Below are positions 24,431 to 35,493 of a DNA stretch of 64,000 nt, in pieces. The notes beneath the pieces were generated by a model, which searched no databases, had not been told where the DNA came from, and saw nothing but the letters and a program-made list of their open reading frames with translations. The stretch lies in NCBI RefSeq assembly GCF_003790525.1, contig NZ_CP033635.1. One strand, written 5' to 3'. This stretch comes from Escherichia coli. Lineage in GTDB: Bacteria > Pseudomonadota > Gammaproteobacteria > Enterobacterales > Enterobacteriaceae. Position 1 is the stretch's first letter. Every line of letters begins with the position of its first letter. Both the position numbers and the translations under genes were made by a program.

Positions 24431-27280
24431 TTGAAATACCTTGCTTCTTTTCGTACAACCCTGAAAGCCTCGCGCTACATGTTCAGAGCATTGGCGTTAG
24501 TGCTCTGGCTGTTGATTGCTTTTTCATCCGTTTTTTACATCGTTAATGCGTTACATCAGCGAGAATCGGAAATTCGTCAGGAATTTAATCTGAGTTCCGA
24601 TCAGGCTCAGCGCTTTATTCAACGCACCTCTGATGTGATGAAAGAGCTGAAGTACATCGCCGAAAATCGCTTATCGGCAGAAAACGGTGTGCTTTCCCCG
24701 CGTGGACGAGAAACGCAGACGGATGTGCCTGCGTTTGAACCGCTGTTTGCTGACTCTGATTGTTCCGCAATGAGTAACACCTGGCGAGGTTCTCTGGAGT
24801 CATTGGCGTGGTTTATGCGCTACTGGCGCGATAATTTTTCTGCGGCTTACGATCTCAACCGGGTATTTTTAATCGGCAGCGATAACCTCTGCATGGCCAA
24901 TTTCGGTCTGCGTGATATGCCAGTGGAACGCGATACCGCGCTAAAAGCTTTGCATGAACGCATTAATAAATATCGAAATGCACCACAAGATGATAGTGGC
25001 AGTAACCTCTACTGGATCAGCGAAGGTCCGCGCCCTGGCGTCGGGTATTTTTACGCGTTGACGCCAGTTTATCTGGCGAACCGGTTGCAGGCGCTTTTGG
25101 GTGTCGAGCAGACCATCCGGATGGAGAACTTTTTCTTGCCTGGTACGTTGCCGATGGGGGTTACCATTCTTGATGAAAATGGTCATACCCTGATTTCGCT
25201 TACCGGACCAGAAAGCAAAATTAAGGGCGATCCTCGCTGGATGCAGGAACGCTCCTGGTTTGGCTATACGGAAGGGTTCCGGGAGCTGGTGCTGAAGAAA
25301 AATCTGCCACCCTCATCGCTAAGCATCGTGTATTCGGTGCCGGTTGATAAGGTGCTGGAACGCATTCGCATGTTGATCCTTAACGCAATTTTGCTGAATG
25401 TGCTTGCCGGAGCTGCATTGTTTACTCTCGCGCGGATGTACGAGCGACGTATTTTCATTCCGGCGGAAAGCGACGCCCTGCGACTGGAAGAACATGAGCA
25501 GTTTAATCGCAAGATTGTCGCCTCCGCGCCAGTGGGTATCTGCATTTTGCGTACCGCTGATGGCGTCAATATTTTAAGTAACGAACTGGCGCATACCTAT
25601 CTCAATATGCTTACGCATGAGGATCGCCAACGGCTGACACAAATTATCTGTGGGCAGCAGGTCAATTTTGTTGATGTCCTGACCAGCAACAATACCAATC
25701 TGCAAATCAGCTTCGTCCATTCGCGCTATCGTAATGAAAACGTGGCCATTTGTGTGCTGGTGGATGTTTCTTCGCGCGTGAAGATGGAAGAGTCGTTGCA
25801 GGAGATGGCACAAGCAGCGGAACAGGCGAGTCAGTCAAAATCGATGTTCCTTGCCACCGTCAGTCATGAGCTGCGAACGCCGCTGTATGGCATTATCGGT
25901 AACCTGGATCTATTGCAAACCAAAGAGTTGCCGAAAGGCGTCGATCGTCTGGTGACGGCAATGAACAACTCTTCCAGCCTGTTGTTGAAAATTATCAGCG
26001 ATATTCTCGATTTCTCGAAGATTGAATCAGAACAGTTGAAGATCGAACCGCGTGAGTTTTCACCGCGTGAAGTGATGAACCACATCACCGCCAACTATTT
26101 ACCGCTGGTGGTACGCAAGCAGTTAGGCTTGTACTGCTTTATTGAACCGGATGTGCCAGTGGCCTTAAATGGCGACCCGATGCGTTTACAGCAGGTCATC
26201 TCCAACCTGTTGAGTAACGCCATAAAATTCACCGATACCGGCTGTATAGTTTTGCAAGTTCGCGCTGATGGCGATTATCTCTCTATCCGTGTTCGCGATA
26301 CCGGCGTGGGGATTCCGGCGAAAGAAGTCGTGCGCTTGTTTGATCCCTTCTTCCAGGTCGGAACGGGCGTACAGCGAAACTTCCAGGGGACCGGTCTGGG
26401 TCTGGCGATTTGTGAAAAACTGATCAGCATGATGGACGGCGACATCTCGGTAGATTCAGAACCGGGAATGGGCAGCCAGTTTACCGTGCGTATTCCGTTG
26501 TACGGCGCTCAGTACCCGCAGAAAAAAGGCGTGGAAGGGTTGAGTGGTAAACGCTGCTGGCTGGCGGTCCGCAATGCGTCGCTCTGTCAGTTCCTGGAAA
26601 CCAGTTTGCAGCGCAGCGGCATCGTCGTTACAACATACGAAGGGCAGGAACCGACTCCCGAAGATGTGTTAATTACTGACGAGGTAGTGAGTAAAAAATG
26701 GCAGGGTAGAGCGGTAGTGACCTTCTGTCGTCGCCATATTGGTATTCCGCTGGAGAAAGCGCCAGGGGAGTGGGTACACAGTGTGGCGGCCCCGCATGAG
26801 CTACCGGCATTGTTGGCGCGTATTTATTTGATCGAGATGGAGAGCGATGATCCTGCTAACGCTCTGCCGTCGACGGACAAAGCGGTCAGCGATAACGACG
26901 ATATGATGATTCTGGTCGTGGATGATCATCCGATTAACCGGCGTCTTCTGGCAGATCAGTTGGGATCGTTGGGCTATCAATGTAAAACCGCGAATGATGG
27001 CGTCGATGCGCTTAATGTACTTAGCAAGAATCATATTGATATCGTGCTTAGCGACGTCAACATGCCAAATATGGATGGTTACCGCTTGACGCAACGCATT
27101 CGTCAGTTGGGACTGACGTTGCCGGTAATCGGAGTAACTGCTAATGCGTTGGCTGAAGAGAAGCAGCGGTGTCTGGAGTCCGGTATGGACAGCTGCCTGT
27201 CGAAGCCGGTAACGCTGGATGTGATAAAACAGACGCTGACGGTATATGCCGAGAGGGTCAGGAAATCGCGGGAATCGTAG
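24431..27280 (+). CDS. rcsC: Hybrid sensor kinase RcsC, 949 aa
   Basis: HisKA (HELRTPL), HATPase and C-terminal receiver domains; K-12 length. Confidence 0.96.
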   Translation: MKYLASFRTTLKASRYMFRALALVLWLLIAFSSVFYIVNALHQRESEIRQEFNLSSDQAQRFIQRTSDVMKELKYIAENRLSAENGVLSPRGRETQTDVPAFEPLFADSDCSAMSNTWRGSLESLAWFMRYWRDNFSAAYDLNRVFLIGSDNLCMANFGLRDMPVERDTALKALHERINKYRNAPQDDSGSNLYWISEGPRPGVGYFYALTPVYLANRLQALLGVEQTIRMENFFLPGTLPMGVTILDENGHTLISLTGPESKIKGDPRWMQERSWFGYTEGFRELVLKKNLPPSSLSIVYSVPVDKVLERIRMLILNAILLNVLAGAALFTLARMYERRIFIPAESDALRLEEHEQFNRKIVASAPVGICILRTADGVNILSNELAHTYLNMLTHEDRQRLTQIICGQQVNFVDVLTSNNTNLQISFVHSRYRNENVAICVLVDVSSRVKMEESLQEMAQAAEQASQSKSMFLATVSHELRTPLYGIIGNLDLLQTKELPKGVDRLVTAMNNSSSLLLKIISDILDFSKIESEQLKIEPREFSPREVMNHITANYLPLVVRKQLGLYCFIEPDVPVALNGDPMRLQQVISNLLSNAIKFTDTGCIVLQVRADGDYLSIRVRDTGVGIPAKEVVRLFDPFFQVGTGVQRNFQGTGLGLAICEKLISMMDGDISVDSEPGMGSQFTVRIPLYGAQYPQKKGVEGLSGKRCWLAVRNASLCQFLETSLQRSGIVVTTYEGQEPTPEDVLITDEVVSKKWQGRAVVTFCRRHIGIPLEKAPGEWVHSVAAPHELPALLARIYLIEMESDDPANALPSTDKAVSDNDDMMILVVDDHPINRRLLADQLGSLGYQCKTANDGVDALNVLSKNHIDIVLSDVNMPNMDGYRLTQRIRQLGLTLPVIGVTANALAEEKQRCLESGMDSCLSKPVTLDVIKQTLTVYAERVRKSRES

Positions 27281-27282
27281 GA

Positions 27283-27363
27283 CGGATAAGGCGTTTACGC
27301 CGCATCTGGCATTCAGTGCAAATGCCAGATAAGACACTAACGCGTCTTATCTGGCCTACAGGT
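27283..27363. repeat. REP/BIME palindromic repeat cluster between rcsC and rcsB
   Basis: gacggataaggcgtttacgccgcatctggca ... gtcttatctggcctacagg, REP consensus family. Confidence 0.75.
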
Positions 27364-28032: not shown

Positions 28033-30705
28033 CTACAGCAAGCTCTTGACATAACTGTCAATGTCGCTGATGTATTTTTCTATTCCTGGAACATCCTTCT
28101 CACGAATCAGATGTTCCAGCGTTTCACATAACTGCTTGCCGGGTACCAGATTTAGCATGGCAAATACGCCTTTAAGACGATGAGCCGTTTGGGCTAACGC
28201 AGCAAAGTCACTGGTTGCTGCTTCAGTATACAGCCTCTTAACATCATCCGGTACTGTGTCTACAAAGAGCGCATAATAGCCGCTGGCATGGAGTTGCGCA
28301 TTTTCATCTCCGCCCAGAGGCGATTCTGTCACCTCTTCCTGCGCCAGTTGCACTTCAATTAATTGTAAGACCGCTTCCTGCATAGCGTTGCTCATATTGA
28401 AGTTGACGCACAATTGACCAGGCCCAATTTCCCGTACGCCAGACTCATCATCGCTTAAAAGCAAGCCAGAGGCAGTAAGATTAGACGGATTATCCGTTAA
28501 AAAGATATCATAATCTTGACTAATTAATCTTTCATCGGGTGTGATACAGGTTGCACCCCAATTTTCTAACTGGCGAGTGACAATATTCCGAATTTCTGCC
28601 GAAGTAACATCCACCATTACGCAGACATCATCCAGTAATCGCTCTTCTTCCTCTTCAACTTTCGGGTCAGCTGCGAGCATTTTGATATGCACAGAGTAGC
28701 GTGTACCAAGCCCATCCCGCGTTTTGATGTTTAAATGACCGCCCAGTTTACGCGCCAGTTGATCGCTCAGCCAGAATGCCAGCGGGTCCGCCTTGCCATA
28801 GCGATCGTTTTGGGTCTGGTTGATAAACGGGAAGTGCAAATTATCCATTTCATGAATACTTACGCCTTCTCCCGTGTCCAGAATGCGGAACGTCAGGCGG
28901 TCTTCGGAGGACTCATCCTGATCAACCTCAAGGGTGATTTTTCCCAATTGCGTTGAGGTCACGGCATATTGCATCAGTAGCAGCAAAATACGTCGTAAGG
29001 CATCGCGATCGCCGCGGCGCATATCGTGTGCTTTCAGATGATTGTTAATCAGCAGTTGCAGACCTTTACGCTTGATGGCAGGCAACACTGAAGGCACAAC
29101 TTCATCAATTAAATCCTGCACGGAGAACAGCACCGTCTCACTTTTCCAGCTATCGTCCGCAAGCATGTTCGCTAACTGTATTTCATCGACCAGCCGCACC
29201 AGCACATCCGCCTGATTCGTCAGTTGTTTGCCTTCCGGGGCGTTGAGTTTAGCCGCGCTCTCCGCCAGGGACTGTGCGGGTTCTTTCAGCGCATCGCCAA
29301 TGTTTTTCATAAAGGTCATCCGCCCCTGCTGGTTTTTCTCATACAGACGCTGCGCCTGCTTGAGTTTCTTGTTTACCAGCACTTCGCGATCCTGATCGCG
29401 AATAATGAAAATTTGTGTGCGCGGCGCAACCTGGCTGCGGAACATGCGGATCTCATACAGCTCGTTATTGATCGTCGCCTGAATAATCCCCTGATGCTGT
29501 TCCGCCATGGTGGTGATGTTTTGCAGATTCAAATGCGGCAGCAAATGATCGGCAATTTTGTTACTTATGACTGTGCGGTTCGATTCCTGATCGTGAACCA
29601 GCAGGCCGAGCGGCAGCAGTGAGACTATCTCTTCATTAATTGCCCGTAAAATGCGCAATTCGTTATTGACCGCCGTGCTGGGGACGCTTTCTGTACTGCG
29701 GCTGGAGAAATGGCGGAATGTGGTATAGCCAAATAACGCCAGCGCCAGCAAACCGATGTTCAGCAGCAGTGGCAGCAGAATGTTTTGCAACGTATCCAGC
29801 AATAAGGTGCCATAAGGAACCTGCCAGACCAGTCGCATATCGGTAGAGTTGAGTGCCGAGGAGATTTCAATCTTCGTACTGTTAAAGTGGATACTGACGC
29901 TATCCGTCCCTTCTTTCTCATTATCATTGTCTCCCGTTGCCGTCGCGTCTGGCTCAAGGCGGAAACTGTCCAGCGGCATGCCCGGTGGGATCAAATCATT
30001 AATCGGCAGATCAAAAGCCACAACCGTTGCCAGATGTCCCGGCTGGTTAAAGGTGGTACGTAAGGTAAAGTAATGACCGTTCTGCCAGGCCAGGCGGCGC
30101 ATGTTAGAAAAGCTTTCGCGTTCATCGAGGGCGTTGGCCTGTTGCAACATCTCTGCACGACGTGAATCAACAATGTCGCTGACGGTCGATTCTTTAAATC
30201 CGGAGGTGAGATCTTTGAGGGGCAGGGTTGAGATCAGCACCAGACTGTTATCCTGACCATTCAGGTAATACATCGACCACGGTACATTTTCTGCGCCCCA
30301 CAATGTGTCCAGATAGGTGGACATCCGTTGAGTCATCTCAAGCGTTGAGTTGTCGTGAGAGCCAAAGATTAACGCTTCCGTTTTGCGGCGTGGTTTCTCC
30401 AGATAGTAGACATCCTGTTTCAGGCGCGTCTCTTGTAAACCTTCGCCGGAGGAGGGGGAGGTCGTCGCGGCAATGTTGTCGTAGATCTGCCAGGTCACGT
30501 AACGCCAGGTATCGACGCGCTTTTGGATAGCGTGGGTAATGTCGACAATCTGGTAACTTTTATCTTTCAGCCAGGCGTTAACAGCGCTTTGTACCATTAC
30601 TCCCATCGTCACCAGTAACACAATGATCAACAGTAAAAAGAAGCGGGTAATGCTCCCCGGTAGGAGTGAAAAGCGGGTCGTGGCCGTTGTCTCTTTCTGA
30701 CGCAT
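28033..30705 (-). CDS. rcsD: Phosphotransfer intermediate protein RcsD, 890 aa
   Basis: K-12 length; membrane-anchored with C-terminal HPt domain. Confidence 0.95.
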   Translation of the reverse strand: MRQKETTATTRFSLLPGSITRFFLLLIIVLLVTMGVMVQSAVNAWLKDKSYQIVDITHAIQKRVDTWRYVTWQIYDNIAATTSPSSGEGLQETRLKQDVYYLEKPRRKTEALIFGSHDNSTLEMTQRMSTYLDTLWGAENVPWSMYYLNGQDNSLVLISTLPLKDLTSGFKESTVSDIVDSRRAEMLQQANALDERESFSNMRRLAWQNGHYFTLRTTFNQPGHLATVVAFDLPINDLIPPGMPLDSFRLEPDATATGDNDNEKEGTDSVSIHFNSTKIEISSALNSTDMRLVWQVPYGTLLLDTLQNILLPLLLNIGLLALALFGYTTFRHFSSRSTESVPSTAVNNELRILRAINEEIVSLLPLGLLVHDQESNRTVISNKIADHLLPHLNLQNITTMAEQHQGIIQATINNELYEIRMFRSQVAPRTQIFIIRDQDREVLVNKKLKQAQRLYEKNQQGRMTFMKNIGDALKEPAQSLAESAAKLNAPEGKQLTNQADVLVRLVDEIQLANMLADDSWKSETVLFSVQDLIDEVVPSVLPAIKRKGLQLLINNHLKAHDMRRGDRDALRRILLLLMQYAVTSTQLGKITLEVDQDESSEDRLTFRILDTGEGVSIHEMDNLHFPFINQTQNDRYGKADPLAFWLSDQLARKLGGHLNIKTRDGLGTRYSVHIKMLAADPKVEEEEERLLDDVCVMVDVTSAEIRNIVTRQLENWGATCITPDERLISQDYDIFLTDNPSNLTASGLLLSDDESGVREIGPGQLCVNFNMSNAMQEAVLQLIEVQLAQEEVTESPLGGDENAQLHASGYYALFVDTVPDDVKRLYTEAATSDFAALAQTAHRLKGVFAMLNLVPGKQLCETLEHLIREKDVPGIEKYISDIDSYVKSLL

Positions 30706-31015
30706 TCGTGTTTATGACCTGTTAAAACTTCGCGAAGTGATAGGGCAGTATAAAGGGTACAGTGTGAAATTCCAGACTCTTACCTGATTGATGATTCTCT
30801 ATTCTCCCGTGATATTTATCATCCTGCATTGGGGGAAATAGATGTACAAGCGCCATTTTGCTGTACAAATAACCTACAAAAAGCCCAATGAAATTAATTG
30901 CAAATAAACGAAGATTGCTGGAAATTATGCTGATGTTAATTATTTGTGAAATAGTTAACAAGCGTTATAGTTTTTCTGTGGTAGCACAGAATAATGAAAA
31001 GTGTGTAAAGAAGGG

Positions 31016-31108
31016 TAAAAAAAACCGGATGCGAGGCATCCGGTTGAAATAGGGGTAAACAGACATTCAGAAATGAATGACGGTAATAAATAAAGTTAAT
31101 GATGATAG
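31016..31108 (-). ncRNA. micF: MicF antisense sRNA (93 nt)
   Basis: Reverse complement reads gctatcatcattaactttatttattaccgtcattcatttctgaatgtctgtttacccctatttcaaccggatgcctcgcatccggtttttttt; divergent from ompC with an intrinsic terminator. Confidence 0.93.
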
Positions 31109-31264
31109 CGGGAGATATTCTAGTTGCGAGTGAAGGTTTTGTTTTGACATTCAGTGCTGTCAAATACTTAAGAATAAGTTATTGATTTTAACCTTGAATT
31201 ATTATTGCTTGATGTTAGGTGCTTATTTCGCCATTCCGCAATAATCTTAAAAAGTTCCCTTGCA

Positions 31265-31324
31265 TTTACATTTTGAAACATCTATAGCGATAAATGAAAC
31301 ATCTTAAAAGTTTTAGTATCATAT
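31265..31324 (+). promoter_or_regulatory. OmpR-binding region (C1-C3 sites) of the ompC promoter
   Basis: tttacattttgaaacatcta / tagcgataaatgaaacatct / taaaagttttagtatcatat followed by a gagaat -10-like hexamer (31353-31358). Confidence 0.75.
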
Positions 31325-31428
31325 TCGTGTTGGATTATTCTGCATTTTTGGGGAGAATGGACCTGCCGACTGATTAATGAGGGTTAATCAGTATGCAGTG
31401 GCATAAAAAAGCAAATAAAGGCATATAA

Positions 31429-32538
<1,110 letters not shown>

Positions 32539-32557
32539 TCTCGATTTATATCGAACA

Positions 32558-32580
32558 AAGGGCCTGCGGGCCCTTTTTTC
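32558..32580 (+). terminator. Rho-independent terminator of ompC
   Basis: GC stem gggcc-tgc-gggccc followed by TTTTTT. Confidence 0.8.
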
Positions 32581-32649
32581 ATTGTTTTCAGCGTACAAAC
32601 ACAGTTTTTTGGTGTACTCTTGCGACCGTTCGCATGAGGATAATCACGT

Positions 32650-33705
32650 ATGGAAATAAGCTTTACCCGCGTGGCACTGCTGGCTGCCGCGCTCTTCTTT
32701 GTTGGTTGCGATCAAAAACCACAACCCGCCAAAACCCACGCTACTGAAGTTACCGTTCTTGAAGGCAAAACCATGGGTACCTTCTGGCGTGCCAGCATCC
32801 CGGGCATTGATGCCAAACGCAGTGCCGAACTTAAAGAAAAGATTCAGACCCAGCTGGACGCCGACGATCAGCTGCTTTCGACCTATAAAAAAGATTCCGC
32901 GCTGATGCGCTTTAACGACTCGCAAAGTTTGTCGCCGTGGCCGGTAAGTGAAGCGATGGCCGATATCGTCACCACCTCGCTGCGCATTGGCGCAAGGACC
33001 GATGGTGCGATGGATATAACCGTCGGGCCGCTGGTGAATCTGTGGGGCTTTGGCCCGGAACAACAGCCGGTTCAAATTCCGAGTCAGGAACAGATCGATG
33101 CGATGAAAGCCAAAACCGGCTTACAGCACCTGACGGTGATTAATCAGTCCCACCAGCAATATCTGCAAAAAGACCTGCCGGATTTATATGTCGATCTCTC
33201 TACCGTCGGTGAAGGTTATGCGGCGGATCATCTGGCACGCTTGATGGAGCAGGAAGGGATTTCCCGCTATCTGGTGTCGGTGGGCGGCGCGCTGAACAGC
33301 CGTGGTATGAACGGTGAAGGCCAGCCGTGGCGAGTGGCGATTCAAAAACCAACCGATAAAGAAAACGCGGTTCAGGCGGTGGTGGATATCAACGGCCACG
33401 GTATCAGCACCTCCGGCAGCTATCGCAACTATTACGAACTGGACGGCAAACGTCTTTCTCATGTTATCGATCCGCAAACCGGGCGTCCCATTGAACATAA
33501 TCTGGTATCCGTGACGGTGATTGCCCCGACGGCGCTGGAAGCCGACGCCTGGGACACAGGTTTGATGGTGCTCGGGCCGGATAAAGCCAAAGAAGTTGTT
33601 CGCCGGGAAGGGCTGGCGGTCTATATGATCACCAAAGAGGGCGATAGCTTTAAAACCTGGATGTCGCCGCAGTTTAAAAGCTTCCTTATCAGCGAAAAAA
33701 ATTAA
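32650..33705 (+). CDS. apbE: FAD:protein FMN transferase ApbE (lipoprotein), 351 aa
   Basis: Lipobox LFFVGC; ApbE-family motifs; K-12 position downstream of ompC. Confidence 0.93.
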   Translation: MEISFTRVALLAAALFFVGCDQKPQPAKTHATEVTVLEGKTMGTFWRASIPGIDAKRSAELKEKIQTQLDADDQLLSTYKKDSALMRFNDSQSLSPWPVSEAMADIVTTSLRIGARTDGAMDITVGPLVNLWGFGPEQQPVQIPSQEQIDAMKAKTGLQHLTVINQSHQQYLQKDLPDLYVDLSTVGEGYAADHLARLMEQEGISRYLVSVGGALNSRGMNGEGQPWRVAIQKPTDKENAVQAVVDINGHGISTSGSYRNYYELDGKRLSHVIDPQTGRPIEHNLVSVTVIAPTALEADAWDTGLMVLGPDKAKEVVRREGLAVYMITKEGDSFKTWMSPQFKSFLISEKN

Positions 33706-33711
33706 AGCGCA
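33704..33711 (+). promoter_or_regulatory. Ada box (AAAGCGCA) in the ada promoter
   Basis: aaagcgcaagattgttggtttttgcgcga ~70 bp upstream of ada, consistent with the methylated-Ada binding site. Confidence 0.7.
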
Positions 33712-33778
33712 AGATTGTTGGTTTTTGCGCGATGGTGACCGGGCAGACTAAAGGCTATCCTTAACCAGGGAGCTGATT

Positions 33779-34843
33779 ATGAAAAACGCCACATGCTTAA
33801 CAGACGATCAACGCTGGCAATCTGTCTTAGCCCGCGACCCGAATGCCGACGGCGAATTCGTTTTCGCCGTGCGCACCACAGGTATCTTTTGCCGTCCGTC
33901 TTGCCGCGCCAGACATGCCTTGCGGGAAAATGTCTCCTTCTACGCAAATGCCAGCGAGGCACTCGCCGCCGGATTTCGCCCCTGCAAACGTTGTCAGCCA
34001 GACAAAGCCAATGCCCAGCAACATCGCCTTGATAAAATTACCCACGCCTGCCGACTTCTGGAACAGGAAACGCCTGTAACGCTGGAAGCCTTAGCCGACC
34101 ATGTGGCGATGAGTCCGTTCCATCTGCATCGGTTGTTTAAAGCGACTACCGGAATGACGCCTAAAGCCTGGCAACAGGCCTGGCGCGCTCGCCGTTTGCG
34201 CGAATCGCTGGCGAAAGGGGAGAGCGTGACGACGTCTATTCTTAACGCCGGATTCCCCGACAGCAGCAGTTACTACCGCAAAGCTGACGAAACGCTGGGC
34301 ATGACGGCTAAACAATTCCGTCACGGTGGCGAAAATCTGGCGGTGCGTTACGCGCTGGCTGATTGTGAGCTGGGCCGTTGCCTGGTGGCAGAAAGTGAGC
34401 GGGGGATTTGCGCGATATTACTGGGCGATGATGACGCGACACTAATCAGCGAGTTACAGCAGATGTTTCCCGCTGCCGACAGCGCGCCTGCCGATCTGAC
34501 GTTTCAGCAACATGTGCGTGAAGTGATCGCCAGCCTCAATCAACGCGATACGCCGCTGACGTTACCGCTGGACATTCGCGGCACTGCTTTTCAGCAACAA
34601 GTCTGGCAGGCACTGCGCACGATACCTTGCGGTGAAACCGTCAGTTATCAGCAACTGGCTAATGCCATCGGCAAACCGAAAGCGGTACGGGCTGTTGCCA
34701 GCGCCTGTGCCGCCAACAAGCTAGCTATCGTTATACCTTGTCATCGGGTGGTCCGTGGTGATGGCACACTTTCCGGTTACCGCTGGGGCGTGTCGCGCAA
34801 AGCGCAACTGCTGCGCCGCGAAGCTGAGAATGAGGAGAGGTAA
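33779..34843 (+). CDS. ada: Bifunctional transcriptional activator / O6-methylguanine-DNA methyltransferase Ada, 354 aa
   Basis: N-terminal Cys cluster (FCRPSCRA), AraC-type HTH, C-terminal PCHRV active site. Confidence 0.96.
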   Translation: MKNATCLTDDQRWQSVLARDPNADGEFVFAVRTTGIFCRPSCRARHALRENVSFYANASEALAAGFRPCKRCQPDKANAQQHRLDKITHACRLLEQETPVTLEALADHVAMSPFHLHRLFKATTGMTPKAWQQAWRARRLRESLAKGESVTTSILNAGFPDSSSYYRKADETLGMTAKQFRHGGENLAVRYALADCELGRCLVAESERGICAILLGDDDATLISELQQMFPAADSAPADLTFQQHVREVIASLNQRDTPLTLPLDIRGTAFQQQVWQALRTIPCGETVSYQQLANAIGKPKAVRAVASACAANKLAIVIPCHRVVRGDGTLSGYRWGVSRKAQLLRREAENEER

Positions 34844-35493
34844 TGTTGGATCTGTTTGCCGATGCTGAACCGTGGCAAGAGCCACTGGCGGCTGGTGCGG
34901 TAATTTTACGGCGTTTCGCTTTTAACGCTGCGGAGCAACTAATCCGCGATATTAATGACGTTGCCAGCCAGTCGCCGTTTCGCCAGATGGTCACTCCAGG
35001 CGGATATACCATGTCGGTGGCGATGACCAACTGTGGGCATCTGGGCTGGACGACCCATCGGCAAGGTTATCTCTATTCGCCCATTGATCCGCAAACAAAT
35101 AAACCGTGGCCCGCCATGCCGCAGAGTTTTCATCATTTATGTCAACGTGCGGCTACGGCGGGGGGCTATCCAGATTTCCAGCCAGATGCCTGTTTGATCA
35201 ACCGCTACGTTCCTGGCGCGAAACTGTCGCTGCATCAGGATAAAGACGAACCGGATCTGCGCGCGCCAATTGTTTCTGTTTCTCTGGGCTTACCCGCGAT
35301 TTTTCAATTTGGCGGCCTGAAACGAAATGATCCGCTAAAAAGATTGTTGCTGGAACATGGCGATGTGGTGGTATGGGGCGGTGAATCGCGGCTGTTTTAT
35401 CATGGCATTCAACCGTTGAAAGCGGGGTTTCATCCACTCGCCGGCGACTGCCGCTACAACCTGACATTCCGTCAGGCAGGTAAAAAAGAATAA
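34843..35493 (+). CDS. alkB: Alpha-ketoglutarate-dependent dioxygenase AlkB, 216 aa
   Basis: Start overlaps the ada stop (TAATG); HxD...H iron-binding motif (HQDKDE). Confidence 0.96.
   Translation: MLDLFADAEPWQEPLAAGAVILRRFAFNAAEQLIRDINDVASQSPFRQMVTPGGYTMSVAMTNCGHLGWTTHRQGYLYSPIDPQTNKPWPAMPQSFHHLCQRAATAGGYPDFQPDACLINRYVPGAKLSLHQDKDEPDLRAPIVSVSLGLPAIFQFGGLKRNDPLKRLLLEHGDVVVWGGESRLFYHGIQPLKAGFHPLAGDCRYNLTFRQAGKKE

Follow-up and report, generated by a model that had tools for sequence, protein, structure and literature searches.

The micF–ompC locus of an Escherichia coli genome: conserved regulatory elements beside a porin gene with reassorted surface loops

The closest described counterpart of the locus reported here is the micF–ompC region of Escherichia coli K-12. 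The small RNA MicF represses the translation of OmpF, and is activated by OmpR and by MarA/SoxS/Rob (PMC3617542). The micF robbox is of class II, with an A site GCAC and a B site CAAA that overlaps the -35 element, and is part of cryo-EM structures of Rob-RNAP (PMC9178005). Variation of the porin on the other side of the spacer has also been described. OmpC variation was found to be concentrated in loops L4, L5 and L7, which occur in many combinations, and to affect recognition by CdiA (Beck et al. 2016, PMC5056734). Porins were likewise reported to recombine as mosaics whose hypervariable regions, in L1, L2, L4, L5 and L7, map to the sites bound by phages (Chen et al., bioRxiv 10.1101/2021.09.21.461324, where earlier positive-selection scans are cited). 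According to these two papers, whether CdiA and phages recognise OmpC depends on L4 and L5. The present locus shares with them the hypervariable L1/L2/L4/L5/L7, the combinatorial reassortment and the conserved barrel; a comparison with the adjacent micF/OmpR regulatory DNA is not part of either paper and is added here, with the outcome that would be expected. The conclusion on loop variation is already published in these papers, and the biology of the locus is textbook, with no departure from the known.

The locus lies in a 64,000-nucleotide stretch of an E. coli genome (NZ_CP033635.1), hereafter the window. Its gene order is rcsC (+), rcsB (-), rcsD (-), a 738-nt spacer at 30706-31443, ompC (+), apbE/ftp, ada and alkB, and over 24 kb around the locus its identity to E. 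coli SMS-3-5 (NC_010498) and to several other genomes is 100%. The features that frame the spacer are the following.

28033-30705, (-) strand: rcsD, an ORF of 890 aa, annotated in K-12 and other genomes, serving as the diversity baseline.
31444-32538, (+) strand: ompC coding sequence, an ORF for a 364-aa precursor of a 16-strand porin with a 21-aa signal peptide.
32557-32576, (+) strand: ompC terminator hairpin from a terminator scan, eight pairs followed by a T-run.

Elsewhere in the window, the Rfam scan detected naRNA4, a REP-derived nucleoid-associated RNA, directly after the rcsC stop codon (27280-27356 (+), 65.5 bits), a tRNA gene (55960-56033 (-), 54.9 bits) and an L25 ribosomal-protein leader (59749-59774 (-), 46.9 bits). 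Across enterobacteria, micF was observed to adjoin a divergent porin gene in 112 of the 112 loci with enough sequence. Forty cross-genus loci gave no regular-expression match to ompC, and tblastn found a porin in all 32 of the 32 with enough upstream DNA, leaving no exception to the micF–porin linkage. The porin beside micF in Enterobacter sp. EA-1 (CP025776; locus L083) matches OmpC only weakly, in two pieces of 38% and 50% identity, where the remaining loci examined by that tblastn reached 64-88%, and could be frameshifted or replaced.

The window very probably (we put the probability at about 0.93) holds the standard enterobacterial micF–ompC divergent locus, in which conserved regulatory elements stand beside recombining porin loops. 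If OmpR and Rob binding, expression and the selective agents are taken from the literature, leftward transcription of micF would start at a weak promoter whose -35 element is overlain by a MarA/SoxS/Rob box, and MicF would be completed by a stem-loop and a Rho-independent terminator. ompC would be transcribed rightward from a weak promoter that needs phosphorylated OmpR on sites C1-C3 just upstream of its -35 element. The regulatory elements would change little because their partners (OmpR, RNA polymerase, the ompF leader and other sRNAs) are invariant. The outward loops L1, L2, L4, L5, L7 and part of L8 would be used as receptors by phages and contact-dependent toxins, and would exist as many divergent cassettes shuffled between strains by recombination, while the barrel, L3 and L6 would stay constant.

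31017-31109, (-) strand: micF, encoding the 93-nt MicF sRNA, recognised by RF00033 and 92/93 identical to K-12 b4439; 5' end at 31109, U-run at 31017-31024.

The identity and position of MicF are firmly established. The Rfam covariance model RF00033, with a curated gathering score of 79 bits, covers 31017-31110 (-) with 116.8 bits (E 9.5e-18) over model positions 1-94 of 94, and the annotated K-12 MicF (b4439) aligns over 93 nt from 31109 to 31017 (-). A sequence-only reading of this DNA had placed a 93-nt MicF with its terminator at 31016-31108 (-); the RNA and its terminator are real and a full-model search recovers them, but the range is one base off by the K-12 alignment, omitting the 5' G and taking in one extra base beyond the U-run. 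The window and K-12 RNAs have the same length, position, 5' antisense region, stem-loop and terminator, and in both genomes micF is divergent from ompC, with 334 nt between the micF TSS and the ompC ATG. The description of MicF as matching the canonical sequence holds for 92 of 93 bases of MG1655. The sole mismatch is RNA position 82 (window 31028), which lies within the terminator stem and is C here and U in K-12. The window sequence was found exactly in 3231 of the 5374 complete E. coli genomes with micF and is the majority allele; the K-12 sequence occurs exactly in 2030, and other sequences in 113.

31023-31045, (-) strand: MicF Rho-independent terminator hairpin from a terminator scan, 10 pairs and a T-run, containing the C82/U82 base at 31028.

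The terminator was recovered by the terminator scan (31045 to 31023 (-)) independently of Rfam. The U of K-12 at position 82 forms a G.U pair and the C of the window a G-C pair, the commoner allele in E. coli (3231 vs 2030); the exchange accounts for the gain of about 2.9 kcal/mol in predicted folding energy (-21.4 kcal/mol for the window MicF vs -18.5 for K-12). Scanning about 120 enterobacterial species with the 5' 28 nt yielded 100 distinct MicF sequences; among these the position-82 pair is G-C in 50, A-U in 32 and G-U in 18, which is covariation, and all terminator pairs form in 99-100% of these sequences with GC/AU/GU exchange. Cross-genus conservation of nt 1-28 follows by construction from the search pattern and is uninformative. 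The "canonical" K-12 MicF is a minority allele in an intermediate G.U state. U82 was considered as the ancestral "canonical" base and rejected, both states being common and both keeping the pair, as seen from the population counts and the cross-genus covariation. A decayed or non-functional MicF copy in the window is a reading of negligible probability. No support for it was found, beyond the one base that differs from the K-12 reference; that base turns G.U into G-C in the terminator stem of a more stable fold and belongs to the majority allele, the pair covaries across genera, and the micF promoter elements are intact.

In none of the non-reference E. coli genomes displayed was a RefSeq feature listed at the micF match. 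The gene, usually omitted by RefSeq annotation, is confirmed as present and intact in the lineage of the window. About 50 of 5426 complete E. coli genomes are without a micF or spacer match, though nearly all of them have ompC; these may be deletions or insertions like that of EC18, a Hangzhou urine isolate (NZ_CP060914; L002:1995-2762) with an IS1 between micF and the OmpR sites of ompC. The IS1 is flanked by a 9-bp target duplication corresponding to window 31206-31214 and splits micF from the OmpR array, and expression of micF and ompC may be altered as a result.

31076-31109, (-) strand: 5' part of MicF (nt 1-34) predicted by RNAduplex to pair with ompF; no polymorphism in the 17-allele sample.

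The complementarity of MicF to its target was computed with the K-12 ompF leader, the strain's own ompF lying outside the window; of 5420 E. coli genomes, 5079 have this leader stretch at 99% identity or more. MicF 1-34 was found to form a duplex of -27.4 kcal/mol with ompF -17 to +11, compared with -13.5 +/- 3.0 kcal/mol for shuffled MicF (z about -4.6), and the duplex spans the Shine-Dalgarno sequence and the AUG of ompF.

31117-31122, (-) strand: putative micF -10 hexamer TAGAAT, read from the sequence, 7 nt upstream of the TSS and conserved across genera.
31142-31160, (-) strand: candidate MarA/SoxS/Rob box of a class II micF promoter, one mismatch to the marbox consensus, with GCAC ... 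CAAA over the -35 element.

TAGAAT is assigned as the probable micF -10 element from its spacing. The marbox consensus is not significant in the window by itself, giving 3 matches vs 1.5 expected. The block at 31142-31160 (-) fits a class II MarA/SoxS/Rob-activated promoter by its position and its A and B sites, with Rob binding presumed from the literature, and the marbox/robbox block is near-invariant among 81 enterobacterial spacers. A perfect palindrome, TTGACA-N8-TGTCAA (31144-31163), overlaps this block upstream of micF and is highly conserved across genera; its outer TGTCAA half reaches past the 20-bp box. A generic sigma-70 scan missed both the micF and the ompC promoter, which is not counted against either because both are weak and activator-dependent.

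31265-31284, (+) strand: OmpR site C1 (TTTACATTTTGAAACATCTA), as in K-12; cross-genus identity 0.87; one polymorphic site, 31273.
31285-31304, (+) strand: OmpR site C2 (TAGCGATAAATGAAACATCT), as in K-12; cross-genus identity 0.76; polymorphic at 31291 and 31298.
31305-31324, (+) strand: OmpR site C3 (TAAAAGTTTTAGTATCATAT), as in K-12; cross-genus identity 0.91; no polymorphism in the sample.
31330-31358, (+) strand: putative ompC core promoter, read from the sequence, with -35 TTGGAT at 31330-31335, a 17-nt spacer and -10 GAGAAT at 31353-31358.
31363-31443, (+) strand: ompC 5'UTR, 81 nt; pi 0.0038; one polymorphic site, 31363.

The names and limits of C1, C2 and C3 are those we take from the ompC promoter literature, and 31363 is presumably the ompC TSS, as in the K-12 annotation. 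The three sites are contiguous, 20 bp each, and end about 5 bp upstream of the weak -35 element; half-site motifs of the form (T/G)xxAC were read as TTTAC/GAAAC in C1, GAAAC in C2b and GTATC in C3b. All 60 of their 60 bases (31265-31324) are identical to K-12, which bears out the earlier claim of three tandem canonical 20-bp OmpR sites. The stretch has the layout of an OmpR-dependent ompC promoter, to which phospho-OmpR would bind as described in the literature. The -35 and -10 elements are also identical to those of K-12, and the only change in the K-12 ompC promoter relative to the window is at 31363. That base is C here and in two other sampled alleles (L004 and L017) and T in K-12 and 14 of the 17 sampled alleles, and is the sole polymorphism of the leader. 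The core promoter is invariant in the 17-allele E. coli sample and conserved across genera, the C2 b half-site GAAACAT is near-invariant across genera, and so are the last 30 or so nucleotides of the 5'UTR. Just upstream of C1, the block AAAAGTTCC (31250-31258) is near-invariant in 81 enterobacterial spacers and may be a CpxR site or an extended OmpR contact.

How strongly is this regulatory DNA conserved? Over its 738 nt the rcsD–ompC spacer differs from K-12 at eight positions (30889, 30890, 30894, 30910, 30931, 31028, 31115 and 31363), with none between 31116 and 31362. A search of 5426 complete E. coli genomes gave 5376 with a match, in all of which the spacer is at least 95% identical, and in 2516 at least 99%. 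Diversity was measured in 17 alleles, namely the window and 16 further loci, a non-random sample stratified by ompC divergence from the window allele. The mean pairwise difference in this sample is 0.012 for rcsD, 0.013 for the spacer, 0.0047 for micF, 0.0038 for the 5'UTR, 0.016 for the region from micF to the ompC promoter, 0.055 for ompC and 0.030 for apbE. Synonymous divergence (Nei-Gojobori) is 0.047 for rcsD, 0.16 for ompC as a whole and 0.126 for its barrel, 0.12 for apbE, 0.12 for ada and 0.10 for alkB.

One explanation of these numbers is that the spacer is not specially conserved and has ordinary E. coli diversity, the contrast arising only from a recombination hot spot at ompC that imports divergent alleles. 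In raw diversity the spacer in fact does not fall below an ordinary gene and about equals the rcsD coding sequence; the dS of ompC and of apbE/ada/alkB (0.10-0.12) is 2-3 times that of rcsD; the loop cassettes of ompC are reassorted; and within E. coli the OmpR array is as polymorphic as its surroundings, with 3 of 60 sites (T9C in C1 at 31273, T7C in C2 at 31291 and A14T in C2 at 31298) compared with 38 of 678 in the rest of the spacer (p=1). The 60-bp array is unchanged in 4538 of 5365 E. coli genomes and carries one to three changes in 827. However, a neutral spacer would be expected near the local synonymous divergence of 0.047-0.13, and the observed 0.013, about one quarter of the lowest neighbouring synonymous rate, indicates constraint. 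The 41 polymorphic spacer sites are further depleted, 6-fold, in micF (1/93) and the 5'UTR (1/81), together 2/174 vs 39/564 elsewhere (p=0.002). In addition, cross-genus conservation forms a footprint whose maxima coincide precisely with C1-C3, the core promoter, the robbox and the 5'UTR: among 81 distinct micF–ompC spacers, the window base is shared at a fraction of 0.87 in C1, 0.76 in C2, 0.91 in C3, 0.83 in the core promoter and 0.81 in the 5'UTR, compared with 0.57 for 31126-31264 between micF and C1. A spacer of merely ordinary diversity is therefore an unlikely account, although the main nuance of the analysis comes from it. The contrast owes more to exceptional variability of ompC than to exceptional conservation of the spacer, given that spacer and rcsD are equal in raw diversity. 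Purifying selection on regulation, as the sequence-only reading had it, is supported by micF, the 5'UTR and the cross-genus footprint, but does not extend to extra conservation of the OmpR array within E. coli; there, extra conservation is confined to micF and the ompC 5'UTR, and the array is distinct only between genera.

A low-diversity block of about 200 nt (pi about 0.003) was observed at about 31344-31578, comprising the ompC core promoter, the 5'UTR and the coding sequence of the signal peptide and first strand (about 34 codons). In ompC codons 1-45, synonymous third positions are polymorphic at 3 of 44 sites, compared with 49 of 184 in the remaining barrel codons (p=0.004). Synonymous divergence is also asymmetric about ompC (28033-35493), at 0.047 upstream in rcsD and 0.10-0.12 downstream in apbE/ada/alkB, which suggests a recombination or hitchhiking tract extending only downstream of ompC. 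It is possible, though we are doubtful, that the most conserved stretch of the locus is this block of about 200 nt, from the core promoter to the first 45 or so codons, and not micF or the OmpR array, under either mRNA-level constraint or a role as a homology anchor. In the former case, mRNA-level regulation (sRNA pairing, translation initiation and signal-peptide coding) would constrain the 5' coding region of ompC; in the latter, the block would be a fixed upstream anchor for the exchange of loop cassettes, with hitchhiking downstream only.

The variable partner in the contrast is OmpC. The window protein has 364 aa compared with 367 in K-12, with 90.3% nucleotide and 91% protein identity, and matches Pfam Porin_1 (PF00267) with 470 bits against a cutoff of 23.7. 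Such divergence is the rule in the species: identity to the window ompC is at least 99% in 518 E. coli records, 95-99% in 57, 90-95% in 2295 and 80-90% in 2551, and falls at 80-95% in 4846 of 5430 records (about 90%). None of the sequence matches (MicF, the OmpR sites, the ompC divergence) is due to chance. The long loops of porins face outward. An AlphaFold (AF2) model of OmpC (pLDDT 91.8, pTM 0.87) comprises 16 strands connected in alternation by short turns and long loops; its input was 122 sequences, made up of orthologues beside micF in other genera and 50%-identity cluster representatives, a model from 17 E. coli alleles (pLDDT 25.9) having been dropped in its favour. The loops were delimited from this model, in precursor numbering, as follows.

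L1, residues 46-55.
L2, residues 83-91.
L3, residues 116-144.
L4, residues 172-196.
L5, residues 220-234.
L6, residues 261-272.
L7, residues 302-309.
L8, residues 338-354.

Mapped on this topology, variable columns make up 58 of 146 in the loops vs 11 of 218 in strands and turns (odds ratio 12, p=1e-16). The window and K-12 proteins differ by 37 residue differences or indels, of which 32 fall in loops (13 in L4, 7 in L5, 5 in L2, 4 in L1, 2 in L8 and 1 in L3), in agreement with the earlier claim that the coding region has diverged in its loops. Conservation of L3, the constriction loop, and of L6 matches that of the barrel. Residue 137 in L3 (31852-31854) is Asp here, in two other sampled alleles (L002 and L017) and in PDB 2XE2, and Gly in all other sampled alleles; it adds a negative charge to the pore eyelet within an otherwise invariant loop. 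PDB 2XE2, OmpC from a clinical multidrug-resistant E. coli (see also 2XE3, 2XE5 and 2XG6), is identical to the window at 341 of 343 mature residues and has the same loop cassettes. The two proteins differ by two substitutions in L8, Q343R and A347D (precursor numbering, PDB chain relative to the window).

The loop sequences are discrete cassettes that have been reassorted among alleles. One 12-residue L5 type was found with three L7 types, and the L5 DAQNTAAYIGNG likewise with three; for two L5 and two L7 types all four combinations are present, passing the four-gamete test. Relaxed constraint, with neutral drift and indels in place of diversifying selection by phages, toxins or immunity, might be invoked for the loop divergence, since the mean loop dN/dS of 0.30 is below 1 (barrel, 0.05), as are the values for L4 (0.17) and L1 (0.32). 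This alternative is quite improbable: dN/dS exceeds 1 in L2 (1.77) and L7 (1.57), and only there; the variation consists of a few discrete multi-residue cassettes at appreciable frequency, recombined and forming no continuum; L3 and L6, conserved like the barrel, imply that loops are not free in general; and L4 and L5 determine CdiA and phage recognition (PMC5056734; bioRxiv 10.1101/2021.09.21.461324). The dS is very high in L4 (0.61) and L5 (0.57), values that uncertain loop alignments may inflate. The best description of the ompC loops is a mosaic of old, divergent cassettes exchanged by recombination. This pattern is compatible with diversifying or balancing selection, of which the mean dN/dS is no proof. 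Phages, contact-dependent inhibition toxins and antibody, agents known from the literature, would maintain the mosaic through frequency-dependent pressure. The proposal of diversifying selection on surface epitopes fits the concentration of differences in loops and the cassettes, with the caveat of a mean loop dN/dS below 1. Both halves of the sequence-only reading, on regulation and on loops, are thus supported in outline.

What does the locus add? Little beyond annotation, though it illustrates neatly how a conserved regulatory module can stand beside a hypervariable receptor gene. In practical terms, the ompC allele of the window is nearly identical to the clinical allele crystallised as 2XE2, and the cassette types are relevant to susceptibility to phages and CDI.
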